From IMG/VR virus record IMGVR_UViG_3300036715_000633, positions 1 through 56,376 of that record: a stretch of DNA of 56,376 nucleotides. One strand, given 5' to 3'. This document shows positions 953 through 38,257 of the stretch, piece by piece (the stretch's first letter is position 1; every line of letters starts with the position of its first letter). The notes under the pieces are model-generated. The model was not told the DNA's origin, did not search any database, and saw only the letters and a list, made by a program, of their open reading frames with translations. The stretch is from a virus. Its lineage: Duplodnaviria; Caudoviricetes. A program made the position numbers and the translations under genes.

Positions 953-2634
953 AGGCCCGTTATTATCAAACCGAAGCGGTTGCAGCCGTCTGGGATTACT
1001 TTGAATCGAAACGCGGTTCCAAGGACGACTGCAACCCGCTGGTACTTATGCCAACGGCCACAGGTAAAAGTGTGGTCATTGCGCTGCTAATCAAATCCAT
1101 CTTTGATTCGTATTTCAACCAGAAGGTCCTCGTGCTTACGCACGTTAAGGAACTGGTCGGGCAGAATTACGAACGCCTCAAACAAGTCTGGCCCGGAGCC
1201 CCTGCTGGAATTAACAGCGAAGGGCTTAAACAGCGTGACTACCACTCCTCAATTATTTTTGCAGGTATCGGTTCCGTAAAGGGCAAGCCTGAACTATTCG
1301 GCAAAGTTGATTTGGTCCTCGTTGATGAATGCGACCTAATCAGCCCTAGCGAAAATACCACGTATATGAAATTCCTGTCGGCGCTGCGCAAGACCAATCC
1401 TTATCTGCGGGTGATCGGTTTCACTGCGACAGCATGGCGAACAGGTCAAGGTCATCTGGTCAATGGCGGTATATTCACGGATGTCTGTTACGACATAACG
1501 TCCTTCGAGGCTTTCAATAGACTGTTGGACGAAGGGTACCTTTGCAACCTGATCCCACCTAAAACCAAACTACTGCTGGACGTTAGCGGTGTTGGTTTAG
1601 TCGGCGGTGAATTCAACCAGGGGAAGTTGGCTGAGGCTGTCGATAAGGACGACGTAACATGGGCAGCATTGCAAGAGACGGCGCAATGGGCGCAGGATCG
1701 AAAGCATTGGCTAATATTCGCGCAGGGTGTCCATCACGCACTAAAGATAGGCGAAATGCTGACCTACATGGGAATCTCGAATGTGGTCATACATAGCGAC
1801 CTGAGCGACAAAGACCGGGACGAGGGTATCGCAGGATATAAGGCAGGTAAATATCAGGTTGCGGTCAACAACAACGTTTTAACGACAGGGTTTGATTTCC
1901 CTGCCATCGATTTGATTGTGGTGTTACGTCCCACGATGTCGTCCCGCCTGTGGGTGCAAATGCTTGGCCGTGGAATTCGGCCACTATACGCGCAAGGGTA
2001 CGACTTGACGACGACCGAAGGGCGACTGGAGGCCATCGCATCAAGCGATAAACCGTACTGCATGGTTCTGGACTTCGCAGGTAATACGCGCAGGCTAGGT
2101 CCTATCAACGATCCCGTGATCCCAAAAGGTCGCGGCAAAGGACCTCCTGGAACTGCCCCTATTAAAGAATGCCCGAATTGCGGGACGTTAAATCACGCCA
2201 AGGCTACGCATTGCATTTTCTGCCGATACAAGTTTGATTTCGCCGTCAAGATCAAGGACGAGGCCTCGTCGGTCGATGTCATTAAAAAGACCGTGGAGCC
2301 GATTATCGAGGAATTCGCCATCGACCACGTGAGTTACGCGAAAGTGCAGCGTTTGCCGAATCCGCCCGCAATGCAAGCGACGTATTTTTCTGGCCTGCGA
2401 CGGTTTAAAGAAATCGTTTGTTTCGAGCATGAAGGTTACCCGGGTCGCGCTGCGGGCAACTGGTGGAAGGCACGAACGTCCGAGCCGATGCCTGTTAGTA
2501 CGGACTGGGGGCTTGCTGTAGCTGATAAGCTACCCGTTCCGACATTCCTGCGTGTGTGGACCAACAACAAGCCTTACCCGCAGATTGTCGCGTCAACATT
2601 CGACCCTAACGGATTCAAAGGTACGGAATTGTAG
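949..2634 (+). CDS. Superfamily 2 DNA helicase (RadD/YejH-like) with C-terminal Zn ribbon
   Basis: Walker A PTATGKS, DECD, TAT, LTTGFDFP, QMLGRGIR, CPNC..CIFC. Confidence 0.9.
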   Translation: MKARYYQTEAVAAVWDYFESKRGSKDDCNPLVLMPTATGKSVVIALLIKSIFDSYFNQKVLVLTHVKELVGQNYERLKQVWPGAPAGINSEGLKQRDYHSSIIFAGIGSVKGKPELFGKVDLVLVDECDLISPSENTTYMKFLSALRKTNPYLRVIGFTATAWRTGQGHLVNGGIFTDVCYDITSFEAFNRLLDEGYLCNLIPPKTKLLLDVSGVGLVGGEFNQGKLAEAVDKDDVTWAALQETAQWAQDRKHWLIFAQGVHHALKIGEMLTYMGISNVVIHSDLSDKDRDEGIAGYKAGKYQVAVNNNVLTTGFDFPAIDLIVVLRPTMSSRLWVQMLGRGIRPLYAQGYDLTTTEGRLEAIASSDKPYCMVLDFAGNTRRLGPINDPVIPKGRGKGPPGTAPIKECPNCGTLNHAKATHCIFCRYKFDFAVKIKDEASSVDVIKKTVEPIIEEFAIDHVSYAKVQRLPNPPAMQATYFSGLRRFKEIVCFEHEGYPGRAAGNWWKARTSEPMPVSTDWGLAVADKLPVPTFLRVWTNNKPYPQIVASTFDPNGFKGTEL

Positions 2635-2671
2635 CTTTTTGAATTATTTTCGTTATTTTCGCAAATAGTGG

Positions 2672-2700
2672 TTTACAACTGCAAACGTCGCCGCTATGAT
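2672..2700 (+). promoter_or_regulatory. sigma70-like promoter
   Basis: TTTACA-17 bp-TATGAT upstream of the ORF starting at 2753 (GAGGA RBS). Confidence 0.6.
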
Positions 2701-2752
2701 GTGTACATGGATGCAACAAATGTCCACAACCGAAAATCACGAGGAAATCAAA

Positions 2753-3319
2753 ATGGAACTGAAATTCTATAGCGCCAAATCGAAAGCGACCCGCGCCCTG
2801 TCCGAAACCTTCGGCGTAACTGATCCAGCACAGCAGCAAATTTTGCTGTTCAAAGGTGAGGATGGTCGCTGGGGCTTCTCGGTCGAGGCTGCGCAAACTC
2901 TGAACGTCGAAACCGTTGCGCGGGAAGATGCTGCCGTGGCTGCGTTAGGTAACAATTTCAGCGACACCGAAAAGCTGCCAGCCGAGCAAGTAAAATCCGA
3001 GCCTGTTGTCCTCGGCGCTGTTTTCGATAAGCCTGCCGACAAAGTGATGTCCTCGATTGTTGAAACCAACAAAGCGAACGCCGCTCCTGCTGCGCCAGTT
3101 AAAAAACTGTCCGCTAAAAATCACATCCGCAAAATGTTTACCGAATTCGCTCCAGGCGGCGCCTTCACCATGTCGCAACTGTGCGGGACTTCCTACAGCG
3201 AAGCGAACATCAAAACCGCGTTGTCCGATCTGAAAAATAAACTGTACGCCGATGGTGATGTGTTGATCGTCAAACGCACTCGCAGCGCAACCGACGGGCT
3301 CGACTACTACAGCATCTAA
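2753..3319 (+). CDS. Hypothetical protein with putative C-terminal winged-helix domain (paralog of 3371..4060)
   Basis: ATG at 2753 behind GAGGA. Ala/Pro/Lys linker followed by KNHIRKMF...IKTALSDLKN...DGLDYY. Confidence 0.65.
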   Translation: MELKFYSAKSKATRALSETFGVTDPAQQQILLFKGEDGRWGFSVEAAQTLNVETVAREDAAVAALGNNFSDTEKLPAEQVKSEPVVLGAVFDKPADKVMSSIVETNKANAAPAAPVKKLSAKNHIRKMFTEFAPGGAFTMSQLCGTSYSEANIKTALSDLKNKLYADGDVLIVKRTRSATDGLDYYSI

Positions 3320-3326
3320 TACAGAA

Positions 3327-3351
3327 GGCGGGCTAACCACCCGCCCATTTT
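3327..3351 (+). terminator. Probable intrinsic terminator
   Basis: GGCGGG-7 nt-CCCGCC followed by CATTTT. Confidence 0.5.
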
Positions 3352-3370
3352 AAACGTTGGAGATTGCCGA

Positions 3371-4060
3371 ATGAATATTTTGATCGACCGCACCCGCATG
3401 GGATTTTGTTACCGTCATCCTGACATGCGCACCGTTTTTAACCTCGCGCATGTCGAACTTCCAAACAGTCACGTTATCGCCTTTTGCGAGGAGGACGACG
3501 CTGAGGTTGGCCACAGTGCGTTCGAGACCTTGTCGGACCTCGAGGTTAAATTGTTGTATCGGAATACGACGGGCGAGACGGACCTCGGTTTAACCAGCCG
3601 TCAGACGGTTGTATCCGCGCTGTACGCGGCGATTGCGAAACTCCCGATAACTGACGCCGACCCGTGCGAGGCGAGCCGTCAAGCCACGTTTGTGCTTGAT
3701 CGTGAAATGGACGTCTATAAATACGTCAAGGGCTCCGATAAACCACGCGTGATGCCTGACGAGTGGGCACCCGAACTGCTACGGTCCACGGATAAAGTTG
3801 TCAACGTTCCAGCCCGCGAAGTTCCAATTGCCAAGGCTACACCTAAGGCGTCAACGGGCGGCGTCAAGCAACATATCCGCGCCATGTTCGAGAAGGCCGA
3901 ACAATACACGATGGAGGCACTGACGTCCGACGGTCGCTTTTCTGTCGCGTCGATCAAAACGGCGTTGTCAGATTTGAAAAATGAAAAATATGCCGGCGGT
4001 GAAATTCTTGTCACCACCCGCATGAAAATTGATGGCGCGGACTATTACGTTAAAGGATGA
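3371..4060 (+). CDS. Hypothetical protein with the same putative C-terminal DNA-binding domain
   Basis: GGAG RBS. C-terminus KQHIRAMF...IKTALSDLKN...DGADYY aligns with the upstream ORF. Confidence 0.7.
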   Translation: MNILIDRTRMGFCYRHPDMRTVFNLAHVELPNSHVIAFCEEDDAEVGHSAFETLSDLEVKLLYRNTTGETDLGLTSRQTVVSALYAAIAKLPITDADPCEASRQATFVLDREMDVYKYVKGSDKPRVMPDEWAPELLRSTDKVVNVPAREVPIAKATPKASTGGVKQHIRAMFEKAEQYTMEALTSDGRFSVASIKTALSDLKNEKYAGGEILVTTRMKIDGADYYVKG

Positions 4061-4090
4061 TTTACAAAATAAATCCCACGATGTTATAGT
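4061..4090 (+). promoter_or_regulatory. sigma70-like promoter
   Basis: TTTACA-18 bp-TATAGT with an extended -10 TG. Confidence 0.5.
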
Positions 4091-4147
4091 TAGACATCGC
4101 AGCAGAAATTTAAACCGGTAACAAAACTCACCTTAGGAGATTCAAAA

Positions 4148-4546
4148 ATGAGCACCCAAACCCTCGAAGAAATCATGGCCCAGGCAAAAATCGACCGCGA
4201 AGCTGAAAAGGCACGCGCCGATCAAGAAAAAGCTGCCAAGGCTGAACAGTCGGCACAGCGCAAAGCGGAACAGGAGGCCAAGAAGGCTGAACGCGAAAAG
4301 CTGAAGGCTGAACGCGAAGCCAAGAAAACCGAAAAACAACCAGAACAGAATGGCGTCCGTCGTCCACGTCCTGACTCCCTGTGCGGCGCCGCCTGGGCTG
4401 TGATGGATGAGGTCACCCTGACCAACGGTCGTATGTGCACCATCGCCGAAGTGATCGAACGCGCCCAGCAACTGAACCCGTCGGTTAATATCAACAACCT
4501 GCGCGGCGAATTCGTTCGCTGGAAACGTTTCAACGGCGTAATCTAA
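4148..4546 (+). CDS. Hypothetical protein: charged coiled coil plus small putative DNA-binding domain
   Basis: AGGAG RBS. K/E/A-rich N-terminal half; C-terminal NGVRRP...CGAAWAVMD...RWKRFNG. Confidence 0.7.
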   Translation: MSTQTLEEIMAQAKIDREAEKARADQEKAAKAEQSAQRKAEQEAKKAEREKLKAEREAKKTEKQPEQNGVRRPRPDSLCGAAWAVMDEVTLTNGRMCTIAEVIERAQQLNPSVNINNLRGEFVRWKRFNGVI

Positions 4547-4703
4547 TCCGGCCGGCCCGCTTCCCACCTTGACGCTGGGCCACTGGTAATAGTTGCTTTG
4601 TGCTATGATTGCTAATCGCAATTGAAAACAAGCCTGCCCTGTGAAATGCGGGGCAATTCCCATAGCCCGAAACCAGCCACGCGCTGTTAAAACCGAGGTC
4701 CTC

Positions 4704-5402
4704 GTGATTAATATTCAACCCATCGACAAGAAAACCGTTTCCGACGGAACCTTCCTCGATCTGCATTCCATCTTTTATACCATCCAAGGCGAAGGTCCTT
4801 TCGCCGGTCACCCTGCCGTATTTGTTCGCCTTGCGGGCTGTAATCTTCGTTGCCCTAGCTGCGACACTGATTATACCGAAGGTCGTCGCATCGTCCACCA
4901 CAAGGACATTGTAGATGGCGTGCTGTCGTTATTCCCTACTCGCGGTCGCCTGCATAAACTTGTGGTCATCACGGGCGGCGAACCCTTCCGCCAGAACCTG
5001 ACGAAATTGGCCTATGCGCTGAATGATGCAGGTTGCCACATTCAAGTGGAAACGAATGGCTCCCTGGCGGCACAAGGCGAGTTCCCGTTCCATGATAACG
5101 CCACGATTGTGTGCAGTCCCAAATCGGGCAAAATTGCCATTCAGCATGTGGACGTCTACAAATACGTGATTGACCGTAACAGCGTCGATCCTGTGGACGG
5201 TTTGCCAATCGAGGTGCTGGGTCATTCTGCCAGCCCTCACGTTGCACGCCCGCCTGCCGATTTCGATGGTCCAATCTATGTGCAGCCGATGGACACAAAG
5301 ACGGACGCGACGAAATTAAACATCGAAGCCGCCCGCCGTATCAGCATGGACCACGGCTACATCCTGCAACTGCAAATTCACAAAATCATAGGAGTGGAAT
5401 AA
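4704..5402 (+). CDS. queE: 7-carboxy-7-deazaguanine synthase (radical SAM)
   Basis: IFYTIQGEG, FVRLAGCNLRCPSCDT (CxxxCxxC), VITGGEP, ETNG, SPK, QIHK. Probable GTG start at 4704. Confidence 0.95.
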   Translation: MINIQPIDKKTVSDGTFLDLHSIFYTIQGEGPFAGHPAVFVRLAGCNLRCPSCDTDYTEGRRIVHHKDIVDGVLSLFPTRGRLHKLVVITGGEPFRQNLTKLAYALNDAGCHIQVETNGSLAAQGEFPFHDNATIVCSPKSGKIAIQHVDVYKYVIDRNSVDPVDGLPIEVLGHSASPHVARPPADFDGPIYVQPMDTKTDATKLNIEAARRISMDHGYILQLQIHKIIGVE

Positions 5403-6152
5403 ATGAAAGCCTTGGTTATCTTATCCGGTGGTCAAGATTCGACCACCTGCCTGTTTTGGGCAAAGCATTTTTACGAAGAGGTCCACGCGATTACGTTCGA
5501 CTACGGCCAGCGTCACTCCCTCGAAATCGAAGCGGCCCGTAAAGTTGCCAAGATGGCGGGCGTGGCTTCGCACGAAGTTATCGCACTGCCGAACTGCCTC
5601 GTATCGACCAGCCCGCTGACCTCAAACGAGGAACTGGAGCAATACTCCGACCATCGTCAAATGGAAACCGCCATCGGGGATCGTGTCGAAAAAACGTTCG
5701 TTCCTATGCGCAACATGCTGTTTTTCACCGTTGCAATGAATCGCGCCGTGGCGCTGGGCTGCACGCGTTTGGTAACGGGCATCTGTCAGGAAGATAACGC
5801 CAACTACCCCGACTGCACAGAAGATTTTCGCCAGCTGTTTGAGGAGACCGCAAACCAATCGCTAGGCCGAGATTCCGACCAGTTCCGAATCATCGCACCA
5901 TTAATGGATCGGTCGAAGGCTGACACCTGCAAGCTGGCGTGGTCGCTGCCCGGTTGCTGGATGGCGCTTGCGCATAGCCACACCAGCTACGACGGCAAGT
6001 ATCCGCCAACCGACATGAACCACGCCAACGTGCTGCGTGCAAAAGGCTTTGAAGATGCTGGCCTGCCCGATCCGCTGGTTGTGCGTGCATGGATGGAAGG
6101 TCTGATGCCGCTGCCGCGCACCACAAATTATAACGACGTACCGGGGGCGTAA
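5403..6152 (+). CDS. queC: 7-cyano-7-deazaguanine (preQ0) synthase
   Basis: PP-loop SGGQDSTT, FDYGQRH, TFVPMRN, YPDC. No N-terminal glutamine amidotransferase domain, so it is not Gat-QueC. Confidence 0.95.
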   Translation: MKALVILSGGQDSTTCLFWAKHFYEEVHAITFDYGQRHSLEIEAARKVAKMAGVASHEVIALPNCLVSTSPLTSNEELEQYSDHRQMETAIGDRVEKTFVPMRNMLFFTVAMNRAVALGCTRLVTGICQEDNANYPDCTEDFRQLFEETANQSLGRDSDQFRIIAPLMDRSKADTCKLAWSLPGCWMALAHSHTSYDGKYPPTDMNHANVLRAKGFEDAGLPDPLVVRAWMEGLMPLPRTTNYNDVPGA

Positions 6153-6619
6153 TGTATTACAGCACAAAGACCTATGGCCATGAAATTGGCTTATCCGCTG
6201 CATTTCGTCAATGGCGCGCCGAATCGCATTGCCGTCTGATCCACGGCTATTCGTTGGCGATTAAATTCGTTTTCGAGTCCGAGGACCTCGACGTTCGCAA
6301 CTGGGTTGTGGACTTCGGCAGTTTGAAGTCCCTCAAGGGTTGGCTGGAATCGACCTTTGACCACACGTTGCTGGTCGCCGAAGATGATCCCGAGAAGGAC
6401 CTTTTCGTTGCGCTCGACAACGCAGGTGTGGCGCGGATCGTTGTCGTACCCGCGACCGGCTGCGAAGCGTTTGCGGAATTAATTCACGAATGCACAACCG
6501 TGTGGTTAAAGGATAATGGCTATTCGCCGCGGGTGCGTTTGACCTCGGTAGAAGTTAAGGAACACGGTGCGAATAGTGCAATTTTTACTGGAGACAATAA
6601 ATGTCCAAACCTGTTTTGA
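6152..6619 (+). CDS. queD: 6-carboxy-5,6,7,8-tetrahydropterin synthase
   Basis: CRLIHGY, VVDFG, FDHTLL, E...VKE T-fold motifs. Confidence 0.92.
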   Translation: MYYSTKTYGHEIGLSAAFRQWRAESHCRLIHGYSLAIKFVFESEDLDVRNWVVDFGSLKSLKGWLESTFDHTLLVAEDDPEKDLFVALDNAGVARIVVVPATGCEAFAELIHECTTVWLKDNGYSPRVRLTSVEVKEHGANSAIFTGDNKCPNLF

Positions 6620-7182
6620 ATCTCGACCAATTCCACGAGGAAGATTTGATGCGCTTATTTTTGCAGCGCATCGCAGGCGTCAGTCCACACCGCGAAGGTC
6701 TGCAGGAAACACCTAAACGAGTAATCAAAGCGTGGCGTAAGTGGACCGAAGGTTACGAAATGAACGCCGCCGAAATCCTCAAGGTGTTTGAAGATGGCGC
6801 GGAGAATTACGACCAGATGGTGATGGTCAAAGATATTCCGATCTACAGCAAATGCGAACACCATCTGGCTGATATCTTCGGCACCTGCACGATTGCCTAC
6901 ATTCCGAATGGTAAAATTGTGGGCCTGTCGAAACTGTCGCGCCTCGCCGATATGTTTGCGCGTCGGTTGCAGGTCCAAGAACGTTTAACGCAGCAAATCG
7001 CGGACGCGTTGCAGGAACATTTGCAACCTATCGGCGTGGGCGTTATCGTTAAGGCGCGCCATATGTGCATGGAATCGCGTGGTATCTGTCAGCAAGGGCA
7101 CCACACCATTACAACAGCACTGCATGGCGCAATGAAGGACGATGCGCAAACGCGCAACGAATTTTTATCCATGGCCAAATAG
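6601..7182 (+). CDS. folE: GTP cyclohydrolase I
   Basis: ETPKRV, CEHH, GLSKLSR, RRLQVQERLT, HMCMESRG. Confidence 0.97.
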   Translation: MSKPVLNLDQFHEEDLMRLFLQRIAGVSPHREGLQETPKRVIKAWRKWTEGYEMNAAEILKVFEDGAENYDQMVMVKDIPIYSKCEHHLADIFGTCTIAYIPNGKIVGLSKLSRLADMFARRLQVQERLTQQIADALQEHLQPIGVGVIVKARHMCMESRGICQQGHHTITTALHGAMKDDAQTRNEFLSMAK

Positions 7183-7190
7183 GAGCAATC

Positions 7191-7835
7191 ATGGCGCAAA
7201 ATGATTCATTGGACAAAGTTATTCCGACGTACTTTGGCGCCTTTGCCACTGTGCCTTTTGTCTGGAAAAACAAGGAATATCGCCCGCGGACGCTTCGCGT
7301 GTCGCCGCATCTGGCTAGAGGGCTTTCGTGTCCTCCGATGTGCGGTGGCTGCTGTCCTAAATTCTCGTTGGATTATTTGCCATTTGAGGATAAACCATAC
7401 GACCTCGTGGAGCGCGAAGTTACCATTTTGGGTAAAACGTTTTCGGTGTTTTCGGATACGCAAAAAGGTAATTATACCAGCCGTTGCAAAAACGTCCGAC
7501 TTGATGACGGTCGGTGCTCCATTCACGGCAAACAGCCCTTTTCGTGCGATTTTGAGATAATCAGGGTTAAACATTTCAACGACCTGACTATGCCAAATCA
7601 AGTTTTGACAGCGCCATATGGACGCGGTTGGCAGTTGTTCCGCGTTGATAATAAAATGGGCGCACTGTGCGGCATCGAGGATGCTACGCAAGAAAATGCC
7701 AACGAGGCTGCGCGAAAATTGCGACGACTCAAAGGGTGGATGGAATACTTTGAAATTCCCCACAAATGTGACCGCGCCATCGCCTATCTGGAAAATGGCG
7801 AATGGAAAAACAATCAACCTATTTTCATCAACTGA
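7191..7835 (+). CDS. Cys-rich putative metalloprotein (CxxxCxxCC, YkgJ/FliB/DUF3109-like) inside the 7-deazaguanine operon; candidate base-tailoring enzyme
   Basis: ATG at 7191 behind AGGAG. CPPMCGGCC...RCKNV...GRCSIHGKQPFSC. Lies between folE and queF. Confidence 0.6.
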   Translation: MAQNDSLDKVIPTYFGAFATVPFVWKNKEYRPRTLRVSPHLARGLSCPPMCGGCCPKFSLDYLPFEDKPYDLVEREVTILGKTFSVFSDTQKGNYTSRCKNVRLDDGRCSIHGKQPFSCDFEIIRVKHFNDLTMPNQVLTAPYGRGWQLFRVDNKMGALCGIEDATQENANEAARKLRRLKGWMEYFEIPHKCDRAIAYLENGEWKNNQPIFIN

Positions 7836-7841
7836 CCTAAC

Positions 7842-8351
7842 ATGAACTCCTCCAAACACTTATCCGAAAACCTGCAAGCGCTGGGCAGCGAAAAGACCGC
7901 GTATTCTTACGACGCGCCGCGTAGCGCGTTGCTCGAAACGTTCCCTAGCCCAACAGCCGACAACGCGCTGAACCCGCACAGCGCCGCGCAAACGCTGCAA
8001 ATTCGCTGCCCTGAATTTACCAGCCTTTGCCCTAAAACGGGCCAGCCTGATTTCGCCACCATCGTTATCGAATACGAAGCCGACAAGGTTTGCGTGGAAT
8101 CTAAGTCGCTTAAACTGTACCTGGGTTCGTTCCGTATGTCCGGCGAGTTTCACGAGGCTTGTGTTAATCGCATCTGTAACGACCTCGTGACCCTGCTGGA
8201 TCCGAAATGGATCATGGTTCGCGGTGAATTCACTCCACGCGGCGGGATCCCGTTCTGGCCGACTAGCACCTGGCATCGTCGCCATGAAGGCTTTGGCGCA
8301 ATTGGTCACGACCTGCAAGCCCCTGGCTTGAATATGGCTTACGAAGGTTAA
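7842..8351 (+). CDS. queF: NADPH-dependent preQ0 reductase, unimodular type
   Basis: EFTSLCPKTGQPDFA (catalytic Cys and Asp), QueF motif ESKSLKLY, FHE, PRGGI. Confidence 0.95.
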   Translation: MNSSKHLSENLQALGSEKTAYSYDAPRSALLETFPSPTADNALNPHSAAQTLQIRCPEFTSLCPKTGQPDFATIVIEYEADKVCVESKSLKLYLGSFRMSGEFHEACVNRICNDLVTLLDPKWIMVRGEFTPRGGIPFWPTSTWHRRHEGFGAIGHDLQAPGLNMAYEG

Positions 8352-8355
8352 ACGA

Positions 8356-9285
8356 ATGCGCCTATTCTTTTCAGGATTTGGCGCGCACGATATCGACTTG
8401 GACCCGCGTATTCCGCGTGGTCCTCGTTATCGTCTGCTGTCATGCCACGAGGAATATTTGCGCGTGGCTCACGAATTTTCCACTGACCTCTGCACGTCCA
8501 TGGAGGACCCTTTTGAACTGATGTACGACTCGGGCGCATTTACTGCCTGGAGCAAAGGGAAGGAAGTGGTGCTGGATGATCTAATCCGCGTGTATGACGA
8601 AATGATGGGCTTGTATTCTCACCGTGCAGCTAACGTGTGGTTAATTTCGCTTGATAAGATTCCCGGGTCGCCAGGGCGTACGGCAGGGCCTGCGGAGATT
8701 GAAGATTGCTGCCGCATATCAGACGAGAATTACAGTATTCTGGAGAAACGTTATGGGCAGCGTGTTTTACCTGTATTCCACCAGAATGAATCAACCGCCC
8801 GCTTGCACGAAGTCGCGGCGATGGCGCCTTATATTTGCGTATCCCCTCGAAACGATTTGCACGAAACCGCACGCGTGCGTTGGTCCGCCGAGGTTCACGC
8901 ACAAATCCCAGGCAAGGATACGCACGGACTTGCTGCCACAGGTTATACCATGATGACCACAATACCATGGGGTAGCGTCGATTCCGCGTCCTGGATTTTC
9001 TGCGCAACCAACGGTGGCGTTATTCGAGACCACCACCTGCGCGTATTGCAAATGTCGGACAAATCATCCGCGCTGAAAAACACGGATCAACACTTCAAAA
9101 CATTACCCATACCACTACAGGAAACCTTCCGCGCATTTGTTGAGGCTCGCGGTTTTACAGTTGAAGGATTGGCTGAAAGTTTCCGCGAACGGCTGGTGTG
9201 GAACCGTGTTATGATTACTGAATTGTATCAATCTATTCCACAAAAACCTGACATCCCAATGGAAGTTGGTTTGTTCGATCTGTAA
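8356..9285 (+). CDS. dpdA: DNA 7-deazaguanine transglycosylase (TGT-like fold)
   Basis: TGT/DpdA-type motifs DSGAFT, LDKIP, PVFH, HGLA, SVDSASW. Last gene of the que cluster. Confidence 0.8.
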   Translation: MRLFFSGFGAHDIDLDPRIPRGPRYRLLSCHEEYLRVAHEFSTDLCTSMEDPFELMYDSGAFTAWSKGKEVVLDDLIRVYDEMMGLYSHRAANVWLISLDKIPGSPGRTAGPAEIEDCCRISDENYSILEKRYGQRVLPVFHQNESTARLHEVAAMAPYICVSPRNDLHETARVRWSAEVHAQIPGKDTHGLAATGYTMMTTIPWGSVDSASWIFCATNGGVIRDHHLRVLQMSDKSSALKNTDQHFKTLPIPLQETFRAFVEARGFTVEGLAESFRERLVWNRVMITELYQSIPQKPDIPMEVGLFDL

Positions 9286-9293
9286 GGTCTAAT

Positions 9294-10253
9294 ATGCTGG
9301 ACGTCCTTAAACTGGTGCGCGGTGCGGTGTCGAAAAAGGACATGCTGCCCGTGCTGACGCATTTCTATATCTACAATGGGCGCATACAAGGATCTAACGG
9401 GCGTCTATGCATCGATTCCGAATGCACGGGGCTCAACATCCCAAACCTCGTTGTCCCTGCTGATAAGTTCCTACGCGCCGTTGACGCGTGCGATGGCGAT
9501 CCGACGCTGATTATTAAGGACGAAAAACTGACCGTTAAAAAAGGCAAGTTTCGCGTATCGATAGCAACCCTGCCTGAATCGTCGTACCCTGTGGTATCCG
9601 AGTTTGATGGCAAAGCTGCGGAGATCAATGGTCCTATAATCCCAATGCTGAAAAAGCTGGCGCCGTTCATTTCGACCGACGCATCGCGCCCTTGGTCTAA
9701 TACGGTATTGATTTGGGAAGGTCACGCATACGCGACGAATAACGTTATCCTGCTGCGCGGTGAAATCCCTGTCAGTTCGATTCTAGTCCTACCTGTGTAT
9801 CTCGTGGATGAAATGGTGCGCATCGGTGAGGAACCGCTATCCATCAAATCGAACGGACACGGCGTTACGGTTGAATACGCAACCTTCAAACTCAAAGGTC
9901 AAAGGATCATGGACGAGTGGCCTTCAGCGCTTGTTAGCCTGCGCCAGAAAATGCTGCGCGACGATCTGCCCGAAGCCCTGCCGAACCTGTACGAGAATGT
10001 GGTCAAGTTGAAACCGTTTTTCCCTGACGAGAAATTGCCCGTGGTAGTATTCTCGGAAGAAGGTATCGGCACGCGTGATGGCGTGCAATCCGCATTGCTC
10101 GAAATCGAAGGACTACCCGCAGGCCTGTATCGCTTTGAATCGCTTGTTGCCACGCTGGAGATTGCGACCCACATTGACTTTACTATGTACCCGCAATCGA
10201 TACCGTTCCGAGGCGCCGGCATTGAAGGCCTCTTAACCTGCATGAGGTCCTGA
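9294..10253 (+). CDS. DNA polymerase sliding clamp (beta subunit-like)
   Basis: N-terminus GAVSKKDMLPVLTHF resembles DnaN; 319 aa; ATN motif; adjacent to the polymerase gene. Confidence 0.75.
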   Translation: MLDVLKLVRGAVSKKDMLPVLTHFYIYNGRIQGSNGRLCIDSECTGLNIPNLVVPADKFLRAVDACDGDPTLIIKDEKLTVKKGKFRVSIATLPESSYPVVSEFDGKAAEINGPIIPMLKKLAPFISTDASRPWSNTVLIWEGHAYATNNVILLRGEIPVSSILVLPVYLVDEMVRIGEEPLSIKSNGHGVTVEYATFKLKGQRIMDEWPSALVSLRQKMLRDDLPEALPNLYENVVKLKPFFPDEKLPVVVFSEEGIGTRDGVQSALLEIEGLPAGLYRFESLVATLEIATHIDFTMYPQSIPFRGAGIEGLLTCMRS

Positions 10254-12280
10254 TGGCGCGGGCTGACGATATTGGTTTATTCTGGGAAGATTTACCCCCA
10301 GTTAAGCCGCCTAAAAAAGAAAAGCCTAAACGCACGCCTCCCGAACGCACATGGGAGCATCCCGATTACTTGCCAGGGCTGGACGAGGCCTTGTCGTTTA
10401 AGTTTGACCTATTGACTGACGAGGAACTGGCGTTATATCGTGGCGACGAAATGGTGTGGGATACGGAGTGTTACCCTAACTATTGGCTATCGGCGTTCCG
10501 GCACATCAAGACCGGCAAAATCATTTATTTTGAAATGTACGAAGGTTGCCCACTTTGGATTTCAAAGATGGAGTGGGTCCTTCGTAATTTTTGCATCGTC
10601 ACATTTAATGGTCTGCATTACGATGAACCGATAACCACATTGGCTCTGGCGGGTAAGACTAACGCGGTCCTGCACTTTGCGACGTATCAAATCATTGAGG
10701 AGGGCTTGCGTCCTGGCGATGTGCTGCGCACCATGAAGGTCAAGCGACTGAAAGACATTAACCAGATCGACCTTATCGAGGTCGCCAAGGGTGATTGTAG
10801 TTTGAAGATATACGGCGGACGTATTCACTGCCCGCGAATGCAAGACCTTCCATTCAAACCCGGTACCGAGCTATCTGCCAATCAGATGGCGATTGTCCGC
10901 TGGTATTGCGTCAACGACTTAATAAACACCCAGTTGCTTCGTGAAACGCTGCACGAACAAATCGCTCTGCGCGTCACCCTGAGCCGTGAATACAAAATGG
11001 ACGTTCGATCCAAGTCCGATGCGCAGATCGCCGAGGCTTTGATTAGCCAGACCGTCGCACAGTTAAACGGCCGACGCCCTCAGGTGCCTAAGATTGCACC
11101 AGGGACGAAATATCGCTACACCGCGCCCGCGTGCATTCGATACCAATCACAGTTGCTCAACTGGGTCCTGCATATTGTGACCACAAGTGAGTTTGAGATT
11201 GGCGACAACGGGAGCCCTATTTTGCCAAAGCCGATCAAGGATTTGAATCTCGAAATCGCAGGACGACATTACCAGATGGGCTTCGGCGGTCTGCATAGCC
11301 AAGAGGAATGTATCTCGCATTTCGCGGATGACACTTACGAAATTTGCGACAATGATGTGGCGTCCTTCTACCCTCAAAACATCCTGAATAATCAGTGGTT
11401 CCCGCTGCACCTCGGACCTAACTTCCTCGTGGCGTATCAGGCATTCGTTACACGGCGATTGGCTGCAAAAGCTGCTGGAAACAAACCTGTTGCTGAAAGT
11501 CTAAAGATTGTTATTAACGGTGGATTCGGTAAGCTGGGCAGCATGTATTCCATTCTGTATTCTCCTGACCTTATGATTCAAGTCACGCTGACAGGTCAAC
11601 TGCTGCTGTTGATGATGATTGAGCGGCTGGAGTTAATCGGCATCCCTGTCGTGTCGGCAAACACCGACGGTATTGTGGTCAAATGCCCGCGAACGCGTAA
11701 GCACGAATTACAGGCTATCGTTAAACAATGGGAGTGCGAAACAAAGCTGGTAATGGAGGAAACGCAGTACAAATCTATTCATAGCGCAAATGTTAATAAT
11801 TATTTTGCCGTTAAACTTGATGGTACCACTAAGACTAAGGGCTGGTACGCAAACCCTTGGAACGACAAGAAAAACATTGCCACTCGACTTGAAAAGAATC
11901 CGACGGCAACAATCTGCACCGAAGCGGTAACGGAAATGATGATTTCAGGGACGCCGGTTGAAAAGACTATTCGTATGTGCGACGACGTTCGCAAGTTCGT
12001 TTCCATCCGAACAGTCAAAGGTGGGGCAGTTAAGGACGGGGTGTATTTGGGCAAGGCGATTCGCTGGTACTACTCGACCAAGGCGAGTGGTGAAATTATA
12101 TACGCACTGACCGGGAACAAGGTTTCCAACAGCGATGGCGCATTGCCGCTAATGAACCTGCCCGACGCGCTACCCGTGGACGTTGACTATGATTGGTATA
12201 TTCGGAAGGCCGAATCGATACTTGTGGATATCGGGTTGCAACAGGTAAATACTACCCCTGTTGCAGAAATACCCAAATAA
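10253..12280 (+). CDS. Family B DNA polymerase with 3'-5' exonuclease domain
   Basis: Exo motifs DTE, FNGLHYD, YCVND; polymerase motifs DVASFYP, KIVINGGFGK, NTDG. Confidence 0.9.
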   Translation: MARADDIGLFWEDLPPVKPPKKEKPKRTPPERTWEHPDYLPGLDEALSFKFDLLTDEELALYRGDEMVWDTECYPNYWLSAFRHIKTGKIIYFEMYEGCPLWISKMEWVLRNFCIVTFNGLHYDEPITTLALAGKTNAVLHFATYQIIEEGLRPGDVLRTMKVKRLKDINQIDLIEVAKGDCSLKIYGGRIHCPRMQDLPFKPGTELSANQMAIVRWYCVNDLINTQLLRETLHEQIALRVTLSREYKMDVRSKSDAQIAEALISQTVAQLNGRRPQVPKIAPGTKYRYTAPACIRYQSQLLNWVLHIVTTSEFEIGDNGSPILPKPIKDLNLEIAGRHYQMGFGGLHSQEECISHFADDTYEICDNDVASFYPQNILNNQWFPLHLGPNFLVAYQAFVTRRLAAKAAGNKPVAESLKIVINGGFGKLGSMYSILYSPDLMIQVTLTGQLLLLMMIERLELIGIPVVSANTDGIVVKCPRTRKHELQAIVKQWECETKLVMEETQYKSIHSANVNNYFAVKLDGTTKTKGWYANPWNDKKNIATRLEKNPTATICTEAVTEMMISGTPVEKTIRMCDDVRKFVSIRTVKGGAVKDGVYLGKAIRWYYSTKASGEIIYALTGNKVSNSDGALPLMNLPDALPVDVDYDWYIRKAESILVDIGLQQVNTTPVAEIPK

Positions 12281-12365
12281 ACAACATTTTTTGCAAAAAC
12301 CGTTTGCGCTTGGGATTTATTGGTGTAATAATCACTACATCGAATCAATCACCAGGAGAAACAAA

Positions 12366-12647
12366 ATGGCCTACCGTCAAATGCACTTAAACAAATCGGG
12401 TTCCGGAATGGCAGCAAAAACCGCTTGCGGTCGCAACATTCTGCGCACTCCGCTGTCGGTCAACTGGGAAGATTTCAAAAACGAACTGCCAGAACATCAA
12501 TGCGCCAAATGCGCGGCGTCGAAACAGGCCGAACTTAACAAACGGAACGACGCGAAAAACGAAACCTGGGTGCCAGTTGGCGAACAGGAAGCCGAGGAAA
12601 TCATGCAAGCTGAACTGGCAATGGTTCGCGCAGCAAAATCCAAATAA
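12366..12647 (+). CDS. Small hypothetical early-type protein (possible Zn binder)
   Basis: AGGAG RBS and ATG at 12366. H...CG...CxxC pattern. Upstream TTGCGC-17-AATAAT promoter-like sequence. Confidence 0.65.
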   Translation: MAYRQMHLNKSGSGMAAKTACGRNILRTPLSVNWEDFKNELPEHQCAKCAASKQAELNKRNDAKNETWVPVGEQEAEEIMQAELAMVRAAKSK

Positions 12648-12654
12648 AACAAAT

Positions 12655-12672
12655 GCGCCCTTCGGGGCGCTT
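12655..12672 (+). terminator. GC hairpin with cUUCGg tetraloop (terminator or stabiliser)
   Basis: GCGCCC-TTCG-GGGCGC with a weak U tract. Confidence 0.55.
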
Positions 12673-12683
12673 CATGGACTAAA

Positions 12684-12943
12684 ATGAAAACCTTCAACAA
12701 CATGAAAATAGCCGTAGCTAATCCGACCGAACTGCGTCAGGTTGTCCACAAGTTAGTTTCGCTGGGTATGGGATCGGGAGCACCCGCGAGGCGCGCCCAC
12801 GCGATTACAGCGGTATAGCTGTAATCGCGCACGCCGATGGGATGATTTTGTTTGGACGGGATTCCGCTCAGTTGTTCCAAACAGGTACTGCGTTTGACCG
12901 TTGCAAATATCCCGCCGTTGCAGTCGAGGATCTTTTAGCCTAA
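12684..12943 (+). pseudogene. Small gene apparently split by a 1-nt frameshift
   Basis: Frame 0 reads MKTFNNMKIAVANPTELRQVVHKLVSLG and stops at 12818. The -1 frame YGIGSTREARPRDYSGIAVIAHADGMILFG...VEDLLA runs to TAA 12943, just before the next RBS. Confidence 0.4.
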
Positions 12944-12952
12944 GGAGCTACC

Positions 12953-13045
12953 ATGTTTTACTACGCGTTGATACTGTATGCCGTCGCAGCCATCGTTTTC
13001 TCCGTAGTTATTTTGGAGGCGGAGAAGTGGCCTGTGGAGGATTAG
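12953..13045 (+). CDS. 30-aa single-pass membrane peptide (not in ORF track)
   Basis: TAAGGAG RBS; MFYYALILYAVAAIVFSVVILEAEKWPVED. Confidence 0.5.
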   Translation: MFYYALILYAVAAIVFSVVILEAEKWPVED

Positions 13046-13511
13046 GCCACGCATCGCTCAAGGTTTTAGCATCGCTTGCGTGTCGGTCAGCGATTCCTGC
13101 CATTTCAACGTAACGCCCTTGGCAGTCTGTGAATACGTCTGTAAGAGCTGTGGTTGTTTTACGGAGGGTTTCGATGGTGGCGGTGGGCACGCTGTCACGG
13201 ATTGCGTTGGCAGTGTCTCGCAGGCTGTTACTAGCACGAGTGTTGGCAACAATAAGCCCAGATATAACTTGTTCACGGGAATCTCCTTGTTTAGATGCGT
13301 CCGCGGCTTTCGCGTCCCATTGTTCCTTTTGCAACTTCGCAGCAGCTTCCGCCTTAGCCTCAGCTTTCGCCCATTCTACCCGAACCTCGATTCGACCAGC
13401 CTCGCGGTCAGATTCGCGGAACTCGTGGACCTTGTTCGCGGCAAACGCAAACGCCACAATACCGATGCCGATTTCAATCAGGAGCTTGTATGGTTCGAGG
13501 AATTTAAACAC
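13008..13511 (-). CDS. i-spanin (Rz-like)
   Basis: N-terminal TM helix, then an Ala-rich coiled coil; located in the lysis cassette. Confidence 0.8.
   Translation of the reverse strand: MFKFLEPYKLLIEIGIGIVAFAFAANKVHEFRESDREAGRIEVRVEWAKAEAKAEAAAKLQKEQWDAKAADASKQGDSREQVISGLIVANTRASNSLRDTANAIRDSVPTATIETLRKTTTALTDVFTDCQGRYVEMAGIADRHASDAKTLSDAWPNPPQATSPPPK
13058..13276 (-). CDS. o-spanin lipoprotein (Rz1-like), fully embedded in Rz
   Basis: GTG start with GGAG RBS, signal peptide with lipobox LVTA-C, Pro-rich mature region, nested in a different frame. Confidence 0.8.
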   Translation of the reverse strand: MNKLYLGLLLPTLVLVTACETLPTQSVTACPPPPSKPSVKQPQLLQTYSQTAKGVTLKWQESLTDTQAMLKP

Positions 13512-35779: not shown

Positions 35780-38257
35780 TTAAGGGGTTATTTGCTGAAC
35801 CACGGTTGTGGTCGTTGCGCCAAAAGGTAACGCCCAGTTCGCGCCTACTGTAATACCTGAGGCCTTCGTTGTTCCAATGTCGCCCAGCTTACCTTGTCCA
35901 ATCGTTGCAGGGTTTGCCAAAATCAACTCATTAAAACTGGACGCGGGACCGTAGACTTTAATATCCGCCAGATTTAAATGGTGGGTCGCTGTACCTGTGT
36001 CAGTAAAACCGGAGCAAGCACCAGCCACGGCGTCCACAACGATTTTTGCCTGAAGGCACGACCAGCTATTTCCAGCCCCATCGTTGGAAGCTGTATTTTG
36101 CCGGAATCGAATCGCATTGGACCCACTTGGCTGATTGGCGTGGTAGGCTTCCAGCTGGAAGTCGTTACCTTCGCTAGTGGTATAGTTTTCCTGTGCGCCG
36201 AGGGTGGTGGTTGCCACAGGAGCGACGGTCCATGTGGCATTGGAAAAATCCAGTGTCGGCGCCGTGGCATACGACCCACCGCGGTCGATCTGAATACTGG
36301 CATCATCTAGTACGCCGTTTTCCACGCAGAATGTACCTACGGCGTTTACCGTAGGAGTACCGCCAGTGAATTTTAGTGCGTATTGCGTTCGGATCGAGGC
36401 ACCACCACTGCCCAACGCGGCCACAGTTGCGCCAATGACAGCCCCTGTAGTGGCGGCTGGAAACGCCACGTTATTGGCCGCGTTGGAGGATAAAATCAAG
36501 TAAATTCCGTTACCTGCTCCGCGCCATTCACGAGCCTTTAGCGACCCCTTGCAACGGCGCATAACGCCTTGCCACGAGATACCATTAAAACCACCCTTGG
36601 TGCGCACATTAACCTCGCAATCCAAATGTGGCCCGCCCGCGTCAGTGGCACTGCGAGTCGATACTGCCCATGTACTGGTTAAAGGGGTGGGAGATTCGTC
36701 CACGCTTATCAGATCAAAGCGGGTCCTTTCACTAACCCCGATTTCCACCAAGCTAATCAAAGTGCCACCCAGTTGCAGATTAGCAGAGTCACCCATAGAG
36801 CTTGCATTAATGACTCCGCTAAAATTGCTGGTACGACCTGCCGCCAAATTAGTCGCCGTTAATGTTGCGCTGTCACTGTGGTAACTTCGGATCGTAATAT
36901 CACTATCCTTAACCCCGCTTACTTGCACTAGCGAGTTAATGAAATCGGCCTCGATGTGCAACCGACGGGCGCGGGACACTGACGCACTACCTGTGGTGTC
37001 CATACCTATGTAACTTGTACCCGAATTTCTCACACGGCAATCTGTGATAGTGATATCGGAAGCCGGGCCGGTAACATTACCGTATAGCCCGATTGCAGGA
37101 CCCCAGCAATTTTCGATCCGCACATTATCAACCTCCAACATGGCGTTATCTGGAGAATCGATAGAGGCCAGCCCGCCATTGCGGGAGTTTTTAACCGTTA
37201 GACCTTTGATTTTGTTGCGGTAGCAGTTATTTGACAGAATAAATCCACCATTGGTATGCGCCACGGTATAATCAAAATTACTACCATCGATGTAAATATC
37301 CGTAAAGAAATTATCGTTGGACCAGCCATTCAAGTGGACCCCGTTACCCTGCGAATTCAACACATTGATATCACGGAAACGGGAGTAGCTCGAATTAGTT
37401 ACAACACCTTCCCCTGGCGCATTTGTGATGGTGATGTTATAAAAGAATGCCGCAGTATTGGCCGTGCGCAGTTCAGAGGTGCATTCCCAACGGCGATTAA
37501 GCAGGTTATTGGAGGCATTACCATCAATCGTGCCATTGTAGACGTAAACAGGCTGACCCGATGCGCGGCTGCATGTGTCCAAGGTCGGACCCATCGTTGC
37601 AATAGTTGCACCTGCTGCAAGGGTATCGATTACACCATTGCCTGAGATTAGAGCCAAGCCGTATGTGACACCTTCAAAAGTAAAGGTCCCCGTGGTACCT
37701 GGGCCGGGTGTGATTGTCTGAATAGCCAGGGCTTGATTGTTGTTGGTTTGAAGATATACCATTAAGCTGGTCGTCGCGTCACCTTGCCGGAGCCCTTTAA
37801 TATTGCAGGACATACCTACTTGCCAACCCGTGATGTCCGCAACCGCCACAGAAAACGCGCCAGCGCTTAGGGTCGCAGTAGTCGTGGTTGTAAGTTGTGG
37901 CGCACGTTTCAAAGTGGCTCCATTCATATCCAGCACCTGCCCCGCCTTCAGGCGCACGGCTCCGGAATAAATATTGTAAGTCGCACCTTGCGCCAGCGTT
38001 ATTTTTGCGCCAGCAGGTTGGTTATTAATGAAATCGCGCAGCAACGCAAAATCCGTTGCAGGGATGCCTGTCGGTGTTGGCGCCAAACTAGCAAGAGCCT
38101 GATATATTGCCCAACCGTTAGACAACAAGACCAAAGCATCCGCCAGTGGAACTTTAACCGGCACGCCCTGCGTTGACGAATAAACCGTACCGTTTGCATT
38201 TAACGAAGTGACGCGACCATCGGACGAGTCTGGTGGAACGAGGAGAATGGTTTGCAT
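35780..38257 (-). CDS. Tailspike/depolymerase-like right-handed beta-helix protein
   Basis: Pectin-lyase-like repeats (GTIDGN, ITNAPGEGV, NSQGNGVHL, IENCWGPAI). N-terminal ~50 aa shared with the next gene. Confidence 0.75.
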   Translation of the reverse strand: MQTILLVPPDSSDGRVTSLNANGTVYSSTQGVPVKVPLADALVLLSNGWAIYQALASLAPTPTGIPATDFALLRDFINNQPAGAKITLAQGATYNIYSGAVRLKAGQVLDMNGATLKRAPQLTTTTTATLSAGAFSVAVADITGWQVGMSCNIKGLRQGDATTSLMVYLQTNNNQALAIQTITPGPGTTGTFTFEGVTYGLALISGNGVIDTLAAGATIATMGPTLDTCSRASGQPVYVYNGTIDGNASNNLLNRRWECTSELRTANTAAFFYNITITNAPGEGVVTNSSYSRFRDINVLNSQGNGVHLNGWSNDNFFTDIYIDGSNFDYTVAHTNGGFILSNNCYRNKIKGLTVKNSRNGGLASIDSPDNAMLEVDNVRIENCWGPAIGLYGNVTGPASDITITDCRVRNSGTSYIGMDTTGSASVSRARRLHIEADFINSLVQVSGVKDSDITIRSYHSDSATLTATNLAAGRTSNFSGVINASSMGDSANLQLGGTLISLVEIGVSERTRFDLISVDESPTPLTSTWAVSTRSATDAGGPHLDCEVNVRTKGGFNGISWQGVMRRCKGSLKAREWRGAGNGIYLILSSNAANNVAFPAATTGAVIGATVAALGSGGASIRTQYALKFTGGTPTVNAVGTFCVENGVLDDASIQIDRGGSYATAPTLDFSNATWTVAPVATTTLGAQENYTTSEGNDFQLEAYHANQPSGSNAIRFRQNTASNDGAGNSWSCLQAKIVVDAVAGACSGFTDTGTATHHLNLADIKVYGPASSFNELILANPATIGQGKLGDIGTTKASGITVGANWALPFGATTTTVVQQITP

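Follow-up and report, generated by a model that had tools for sequence, protein, structure and literature searches.

What does an additional cysteine-rich gene contribute when it stands among the base-synthesis genes of a phage? This question is raised by IMG/VR virus record IMGVR_UViG_3300036715_000633 (56,376 nucleotides (nt), the whole of which was analysed and is referred to as the window), where an open reading frame (ORF) of 214 codons is found at 7191-7835 on the plus strand, between folE and queF. An earlier note on this DNA had taken the ORF either for a divergent DpdM or for an enzyme making an undescribed base, and had ranked it as the strongest candidate for a new system in the window. 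The former option has held, as the protein matches the published DpdM genes by tblastn, keeps eight metal cysteines and has a matching predicted fold: judged from its sequence, the ORF almost certainly encodes a member of the DpdM family, and the gene should carry the name dpdM. The latter option gives way to prior work, since this family of genes, with genomic context and product alike, had already been published in 2023 (PMC10516641); a new system or a new base is not supported, and the window gene is an added member of the known DpdM system. In the present analysis this reading draws on homology, cysteine conservation, predicted fold and genomic context, and the product of the homologs, 7-(methylamino)methyl-7-deazaguanine (mdPreQ1) in DNA, is taken from the literature.

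The ORF and its kinship with DpdM

The ORF is uninterrupted, encodes a protein of 214 amino acids (aa) and is a real gene, far beyond a chance ORF, because its product has 142 homologs in the database at an expect value (E) of 1e-3 or below, the best of them other than itself at 66% identity and E 2.4e-92. Its start lies 8 nt past the folE stop, and the start codon is supported by the N-terminus, which aligns from residue 1 with phiSM CEPG_00054, Pan1 gp55 and others. A mirror ORF of 217 aa runs antisense to it and is nearly co-extensive with it on the minus strand (7206-7859), so that the true gene might be the one on the opposite strand, or the locus might hold no gene at all. This frame is indeed open in the window over 209 stop-free codons, nearly its full length, but the antisense ORF lacks a PHROG match, and homologous loci have not preserved the open frame (median longest stop-free stretch of 120 aa in 45 loci), whereas the plus-strand product has the homologs given above. 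The antisense ORF is probably a chance mirror frame, and it is barely conceivable that it, or nothing, is the gene at this locus.

DpdM was described in 2023 as the phage dPreQ1 N-methyltransferase, and CEPG_00054 of phage phiSM was given this name (PMC10516641). When the 214-aa protein was compared by tblastn with 50,697 phage records, 27 records matched, and in 26 the match spanned 80% of the query or more. Seven of the matching records were from Cellulophaga phages, the phiSM match falling on CEPG_00054 (E 8e-24, locus tag confirmed), and the others included the Vibrio phages VH7D, phi-Grn1 and phi-ST2, the VH7D match falling on AGB06868.1 (E 7e-26); the phiSM and VH7D matches were at 93-99% coverage. 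The VH7D DpdM was equated with the 304-aa ORF AGB06868.1 by homology and its length of 304 aa only. By BLASTP, the window protein was 33% identical to phiSM DpdM (E 1e-32) and 32% identical to the VH7D ORF (E 8e-34), and these two were 25% identical to each other (E 1e-10); the window protein is thus closer to each of them than they are to one another.

A quick maximum-likelihood tree, unrooted, was built from 46 rows (the window, four named phages and 41 IMG/VR loci; L043 was left out, being the VH7D genome again). Its deepest supported split (Shimodaira-Hasegawa-like approximate likelihood ratio test, SH-aLRT, 99) set phiSM, L044 and L045 apart from the 43 rows that remained. Among these 43, the VH7D protein was placed together with the window, and the window itself grouped with L005 and L006 (support 100). 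Therefore, with the root anywhere but on the branch of the window protein, this protein would descend from the last common ancestor of both characterised DpdMs.

The window protein resembles the DpdMs of phiSM, VH7D, phi-Grn1 and phi-ST2 in its full-length homology, in the CxxxCxxCC motif with four further cysteines and in the association with queF and DpdA. The gene order is folE-dpdM-queF-dpdA in the window and queF-dpdM-dpdA in phiSM, and the insertions of the 304-aa Vibrio form are absent from the window protein. The window protein is about one third identical to the characterised DpdMs and falls in a large, mostly uncultivated clade with Pan1 gp55 and Knocker gp4. The former, from cyanophage Pseudanabaena Pan1 (L003:8001-8651), is 46% identical to the window protein and annotated as "YkgJ family cysteine cluster protein"; the latter, from a mycobacteriophage (L004:2544-3188), is 40% identical and annotated as "hypothetical protein". 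Both genes stand beside queF and dpdA. The names Pan1 and Knocker are absent from the main text of PMC10516641, and the two cultured phages would be accessible systems for mdPreQ1 testing.

Conserved cysteines and predicted fold

The motif C47-P-P-M-C51-G-G-C54-C55 (CxxxCxxCC) of the window protein is followed by the conserved residues C99, C109 (then x-I-H), P116-x-x-C119 and C160, while C193 is not conserved. The earlier note had reported a 214-aa ORF with a ribosome-binding site and Cys motifs inside the pathway; all of this was confirmed (AGGAG, CxxxCxxCC, C109-x-I-H and P116-x-x-C119), and C160 was added. For phiSM DpdM, two metal sites were proposed, one formed by the first three cysteines of CxxxCxxCC with C150 and the other by C42, C92, C102 and C112 (PMC10516641). 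In our alignment C92, C102, C112 and C150 of phiSM correspond to C99, C109, C119 and C160 of the window protein, and the eight metal cysteines are invariant in 5/5 alignment rows and in 73/73 relatives. The grouping C47/C51/C54 with C160 and C55/C99/C109/C119 was transferred from the published phiSM model via this alignment.

The AlphaFold2 model of the window protein, built on a 73-sequence alignment, had a mean predicted local distance difference test (pLDDT) of 95.5 and a predicted template modelling score (pTM) of 0.90. Exactly three BFVD models matched it at E<=1e-3, with template modelling (TM) scores of 0.93 (214 aa), 0.83 (304 aa) and 0.79 (217 aa), which were equated by length only with Knocker gp4, the VH7D-type protein and phiSM DpdM, respectively; the predicted fold is therefore like that of DpdM, at TM 0.79-0.83 to the models so matched to phiSM and VH7D-type proteins. 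Solved structures gave no functional lead, either from sequence or from fold searches of the PDB: Foldseek returned 0 matches at E<=1e-3, and the best Z score in a wide VIA-align search was 2.7 among 48,161 chains. The lone PDB match by sequence was a 14-3-3 protein at E 0.32, which is chance level and was rejected. For this modelled structure, the lack of a PDB fold match agrees with the statement in PMC10516641 that the DpdM fold is unique and not previously seen in nucleic acid methylases.

The earlier note had also described DpdM as a Cys-rich protein of DUF3109/YkgJ type, in agreement with the text of PMC10516641, where phiSM DpdM was assigned to DUF3109 by HHpred. No NCBIfam match was found for the window protein at E<=0.1, and its PHROGs matches were two families of unknown function. 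The three-Cys spacing CxxxCxxC is like that of radical S-adenosylmethionine (SAM) enzymes; the window protein had no PF04055 match, and no radical SAM structure was among the fold matches, an absence that does not exclude membership. A profile of the family retrieved 537 representatives at E<=1e-3, 394 at 1e-10 and 226 at 1e-30 out of 1.84 billion (clusters at 50% identity), which therefore indicates a narrow family, as a generic domain for metal binding would have far more members.

Several family members are longer than the window protein. P0133, P0162, P0182, P0219 and P0225 reach 479-1064 aa, one end of each being occupied by the DpdM domain, and may be fusions or gene-calling artefacts. 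The extra parts of ten long or fused relatives (P0127, P0133, P0151, P0152, P0160, P0162, P0182, P0219, P0225 and P0265) gave nothing informative with Pfam: one DUF3102 match was obtained (P0133), and five had PF03692 only. On a Smithella contig from a metagenome-assembled genome (MAG; L054:1830-2463), two overlapping ORFs share the dpdM homolog between them, maybe because of a frameshift or a sequencing error, within a queC-folE-dpdM-queF-dpdA block.

Proposed reaction and its alternatives

We predict that the window protein probably N-methylates the 7-aminomethyl group of preQ1 in a reaction that depends on a metal or an iron-sulphur (Fe-S) cluster, giving mdPreQ1 DNA. DpdA would swap guanine in phage DNA for a 7-deazaguanine base, DpdM would then methylate the exocyclic 7-aminomethyl nitrogen so that mdPreQ1 is left in the DNA, and this base may help to shield the phage genome from host nucleases. 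Catalysis would take place with the two Cys4 metal sites C47/C51/C54 plus C160 and C55/C99/C109/C119, of which, by analogy with FliB, at least one would probably hold an oxygen-sensitive [4Fe-4S] cluster, with SAM as the presumed methyl donor. What we infer here is the cofactor, the methyl donor, the biological role and whether preQ1 is used as the free base or within DNA; the product has been reported for homologs, mdPreQ1 being present in the DNA of phiSM, phi38:2, phi47:1, phi-Grn1 and phi-ST2, and VH7D dpdM together with VH7D dpdA2 giving mdPreQ1 in E. coli plasmid DNA (PMC10516641).

FliB, the flagellin lysine N-methyltransferase of Salmonella and the one other N-methylase studied that has a motif of this kind, likewise N-methylates a primary amine, has a PF03692-type Cys-rich N-terminal motif with eight conserved cysteines and lacks a Rossmann fold; it is SAM-dependent and carries an O2-sensitive [4Fe-4S] cluster on its CX4CX3CC motif (PMC8598068). 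Compared by this published description, the motif differs from the CX3CX2CC of the window protein, the substrate of FliB is a protein, and FliB forms a membrane-associated oligomer. Another enzyme that tailors the aminomethyl group of preQ1 in a phage with queF and dpdA is the one forming fdPreQ1 (+28 Da), which was separately discovered and is a different protein by its description in PMC10516641. Among the matches listed in our searches of the searchable literature, we found no work on the mechanism of DpdM later than this paper.

Several points weigh against this assignment and this reaction. The function of the window protein and its close clade is a prediction from sequence, identity to the characterised DpdMs is just 32-33%, and VH7D stands on a long branch (2.11), which makes its placement in the tree unsure. 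The Pfam family PF03692 (CxxCxxCC) reached 22.7 bits on the window protein, just under its cut-off of 23 bits (E 1.7e-4), and DUF3109 was not found with HMMER/hmmscan, either for the window protein at E<=0.01 or for any of its 73 relatives at E<=1. The fourth cysteine (phiSM C150, window C160) was argued in PMC10516641 to disrupt a radical-SAM-type cluster, and for this reason another metal, and possibly another methyl donor, was preferred there. Published yields are also low: mdPreQ1 amounted to about 5% of dPreQ1 in phiSM (212 vs 3790 per 10^6 nt; PMC10516641, Tables 1 and 2) and to only 9 or 40 per 10^6 nt in E. coli with DpdA2 and DpdM (PMC10516641, Table 2), so that DpdM may chiefly catalyse something other than methylation.

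The weak PF03692 match, together with an hhalign alignment to E. coli YkgJ (probability 35%, E 4e-4), would also suit a metal-binding protein of the general YkgJ type that tailors no base and assists other enzymes without catalysis of its own, for instance by carrying Fe-S or electrons to QueE or QueF. PF03692 was detected at E<=1 in 70/73 family members (best 2.3e-8). The alignment to YkgJ, however, spans the Cys core only (window residues 49-119, 69 columns), and YkgJ, at 109 aa, consists of this core, whereas the window protein is twice as long and its N-terminal 46 and C-terminal 95 residues are conserved and specific to the DpdM group. Moreover, at 537 clusters in 1.84 billion the family is too narrow for the broad YkgJ set, and the VH7D homolog was required for mdPreQ1 in E. 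coli (PMC10516641). In addition, queF was present in 83 phage records and the dpdM homolog in 27; therefore QueF does not need the homolog, and DpdM would be an optional add-on to the preQ1 branch. An accessory role of this kind is thus very improbable. No functional study of YkgJ was found among the matches listed in our literature search.

The published mass balance bears on the product itself. In E. coli, DpdA2 alone gave 2765 or 3666 dPreQ1 per 10^6 nt, and with DpdM added 0 or 97 were left (PMC10516641, Table 2), so that 2765 or 3569 dPreQ1 were removed while the few mdPreQ1 given above were formed. By our reckoning from this table, DpdM would remove about 97-100% of dPreQ1 from the DNA and about 0.3-1% would reappear as mdPreQ1, most of it being unaccounted for. 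In a delta-queF strain the insertion of dPreQ0 was unchanged by DpdM (630 vs 696 and 616 vs 672; PMC10516641, Table 2), and the loss of dPreQ1 is therefore specific to preQ1 and does not reflect a general drop in DpdA2 activity. Possible causes of the loss are that the base is methylated while free and then poorly inserted, that a product was formed which was not monitored, or that an oxygen-sensitive enzyme was damaged.

The second of these causes would mean that DpdM-type enzymes, the window's included, mainly turn preQ1, free or in DNA, into an undescribed 7-deazaguanine derivative, with mdPreQ1 as a minor side or intermediate product. The imbalance and the unaltered dPreQ0 insertion in the delta-queF strain fit such a product, the fold has no solved relative, and the cofactor and methyl donor of DpdM are at the stage of proposals. 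Yet mdPreQ1 was the only DpdM-linked product in five phages and in the heterologous test (PMC10516641), and the missing dPreQ1 could also result from free-base methylation with poor insertion of methyl-preQ1 by DpdA2, or from damage by oxygen to an Fe-S enzyme when E. coli is grown aerobically. We consider an undescribed main product unlikely. The idea, just as unlikely in this form, would concern the whole DpdM family and not the window gene in particular; if true, the large uncultivated clade of the window could have an undescribed base in its DNA, the product of a new fold that depends on Fe-S or a metal.

The first cause is a variant of the DpdM assignment that differs in the order of steps only, in that the methyltransferase would act on free preQ1 before insertion and DpdA would then insert methyl-preQ1. 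The imbalance in Table 2 of PMC10516641 fits a depleted pool of free preQ1, the window gene stands among base-synthesis genes, between folE and queF and upstream of dpdA, and in two bacterial MAG loci the homolog adjoins a gene for a DUF6610 (DpdA4-like) protein, in one of them also a gene for a Vut_1/YhhQ-type transporter. Gene order is weak evidence, however, and action on DNA was proposed in PMC10516641 from the positively charged groove of the phiSM model. Methylation before insertion is therefore a tentative possibility, and in the reading that we prefer the inserted base would be methylated, giving mdPreQ1 DNA. Phages with dpdM, queF and dpdA together can be predicted to hold dPreQ1 or mdPreQ1 DNA.

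Genomic setting and co-occurrence with queF and transglycosylases

The preQ1 route is complete without the 214-aa ORF, as the earlier note had stated, since queE, queC, queD, folE and queF are all present and assigned (Table 1), QueF being above the TIGR03139 equivalog cut-off. From queE to the DNA polymerase the genes form one plus-strand block in which neighbours overlap or are separated by gaps of at most 8 nt; queF starts 6 nt past the dpdM homolog, and dpdA is next after queF. The dpdA of the window matched 173 phage records by tblastn, some of them annotated as DpdA or as 7-deazaguanosine-inserting enzyme. A promoter and terminator scan of 2500-13500 gave counts no higher than those of shuffled sequences (10 vs 10.7 +/- 4.0 and 13 vs 14.7 +/- 4.4), and the scan therefore says nothing on operon structure.

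Table 1. Features of the dpdM region of the window
Feature	Position	Strand	Evidence or remark
queE (radical SAM 7-carboxy-7-deazaguanine (CDG) synthase)	4641-5402	+	PF04055; phrog_2076, E 1.6e-54
queC (preQ0 synthase)	5403-6152	+	PF06508, E 3.1e-52
queD (6-carboxytetrahydropterin synthase)	6152-6619	+	PF01242; phrog_2389, E 2.7e-43
folE (GTP cyclohydrolase I)	6601-7182	+	PF01227, E 6.5e-68
AGGAG ribosome-binding site	7181-7185	+	5 nt 5' of ATG; overlaps folE stop codon; read from sequence
dpdM homolog, 214 aa	7191-7835	+	CxxxCxxCC at C47-C55 plus C99, C109, C119, C160
queF (unimodular preQ0 reductase making preQ1)	7842-8351	+	PF14489, E 3.9e-31; TIGR03139, 136.7 bits vs cut-off 86.9
dpdA (DNA guanine transglycosylase family)	8356-9285	+	phrog_887, E 1.6e-39
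sliding clamp	9294-10253	+	
DNA polymerase	10253-12280	+	

An IMG/VR scan by a degenerate pattern yielded 42 loci, and flanks of up to 8 kb were searched with iterative profiles that started from the proteins of the window, phiSM, Pan1 and Knocker. The flanks of 37/42 loci contained one or more of the genes folE, queD, queE, queC, queF and dpdA. QueF was encoded within 8 kb in 32/42 and elsewhere on the record in L010, L026 and L027 and in L043 (the VH7D genome), which makes 36/42; the six loci without queF (L024, L025, L029, L032, L037 and L039) are short or cut contigs. DpdA of the phrog_887 type was in the flank of 23/42 loci and elsewhere on the record for L019 and L026, and L022, L030 and L040 had a DUF6610 protein in its place; DUF6610 was equated in PMC10516641 with DpdA4, called specific to archaeal viruses. 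No transglycosylase of either kind (phrog_887 DpdA or DUF6610) was found for L014-L017, L021, L036 and L044, which are fragments of an estimated 7-28% completeness. Co-occurrence with queF and the transglycosylase had been set beforehand as a check by the earlier note, and its proposal was not refuted, as the homologs accompany queF and a DNA transglycosylase rather than turning up in phages without these genes.

The text of PMC10516641 speaks of "seven other phages"; with 27 phage records, 42 IMG/VR loci and 537 clusters (50% identity) counted here, the family proves much larger and also more widely distributed. DpdM is known from this single paper, where its activity was low; the window provides a compact member, modelled at the high pLDDT given above, from a complete phage genome with the whole pathway in one tight block, and may be convenient for biochemistry.

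A single-pattern scan of 185,579 species genomes gave six loci. Four of the six have a phrog_887-type DpdA nearby, two of these also with queF, and in the remaining two a DUF6610 gene adjoins the dpdM homolog. The latter two are bacterial MAG contigs from Alphaproteobacteria and Acidobacteriota (L050:6898-9199 and L049:1198-3548; PF20314, E 6.5e-52 and 2.3e-47, respectively). In L050 the Vut_1/YhhQ-type transporter gene also adjoins the homolog, transposase genes are found near the homolog in both (DDE_3 in L050, IS110-type in L049), and no phrog_887 DpdA was found in either genome. In their make-up, the two loci resemble a minimal bacterial module for salvage, insertion and methylation.

Two further arrangements were observed in IMG/VR. 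At L040:5104-6552, a 482-aa ParB-like plus DUF6610 fusion stands beside queF and the dpdM homolog, on a record estimated to be 100% complete and with no phrog_887 DpdA; the DpdM of this locus pairs with that of mycobacteriophage Knocker in the 46-row tree. The second is seen at L016:9331-11630 and at the similar loci L014, L015, L017, L021, L036 and L044, fragments of apparently large phages with a bimodular QueF of 305 aa, for which a full-length phrog_5949 match was checked in L016. Between folE and queF of L016 lies a 461-aa protein (phrog_10773, unknown function), which may be a candidate transglycosylase of this group.

The window is a complete 56-kb IMG/VR virus record with direct terminal repeats and represents an uncultivated phage genome. 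It carries structural genes of siphovirus type (tape measure, portal, large terminase and tail protein) and a replication module of primase, helicases, ligase, single-stranded DNA-binding protein, Sak4-like annealing protein and Cas4-like exonuclease. Weak DNA likeness was found to Sphingomonas phage MMDA13 and to PaMx25-, BL5- and DoCa3-type phages (68-71% identity over 13-25% of a 7.7-kb query). Just 5' of queE are two plus-strand ORFs, one of 207 aa (2696-3319) with no PHROG or Pfam match and one of 229 aa (3371-4060) that matches phrog_7864 (unknown function, E 7.3e-21). Two minus-strand ORFs of 825 and 701 aa (35780-38257 and 38291-40396), with no PHROG match at E<=1e-3, lie between the terminase region and a helicase.

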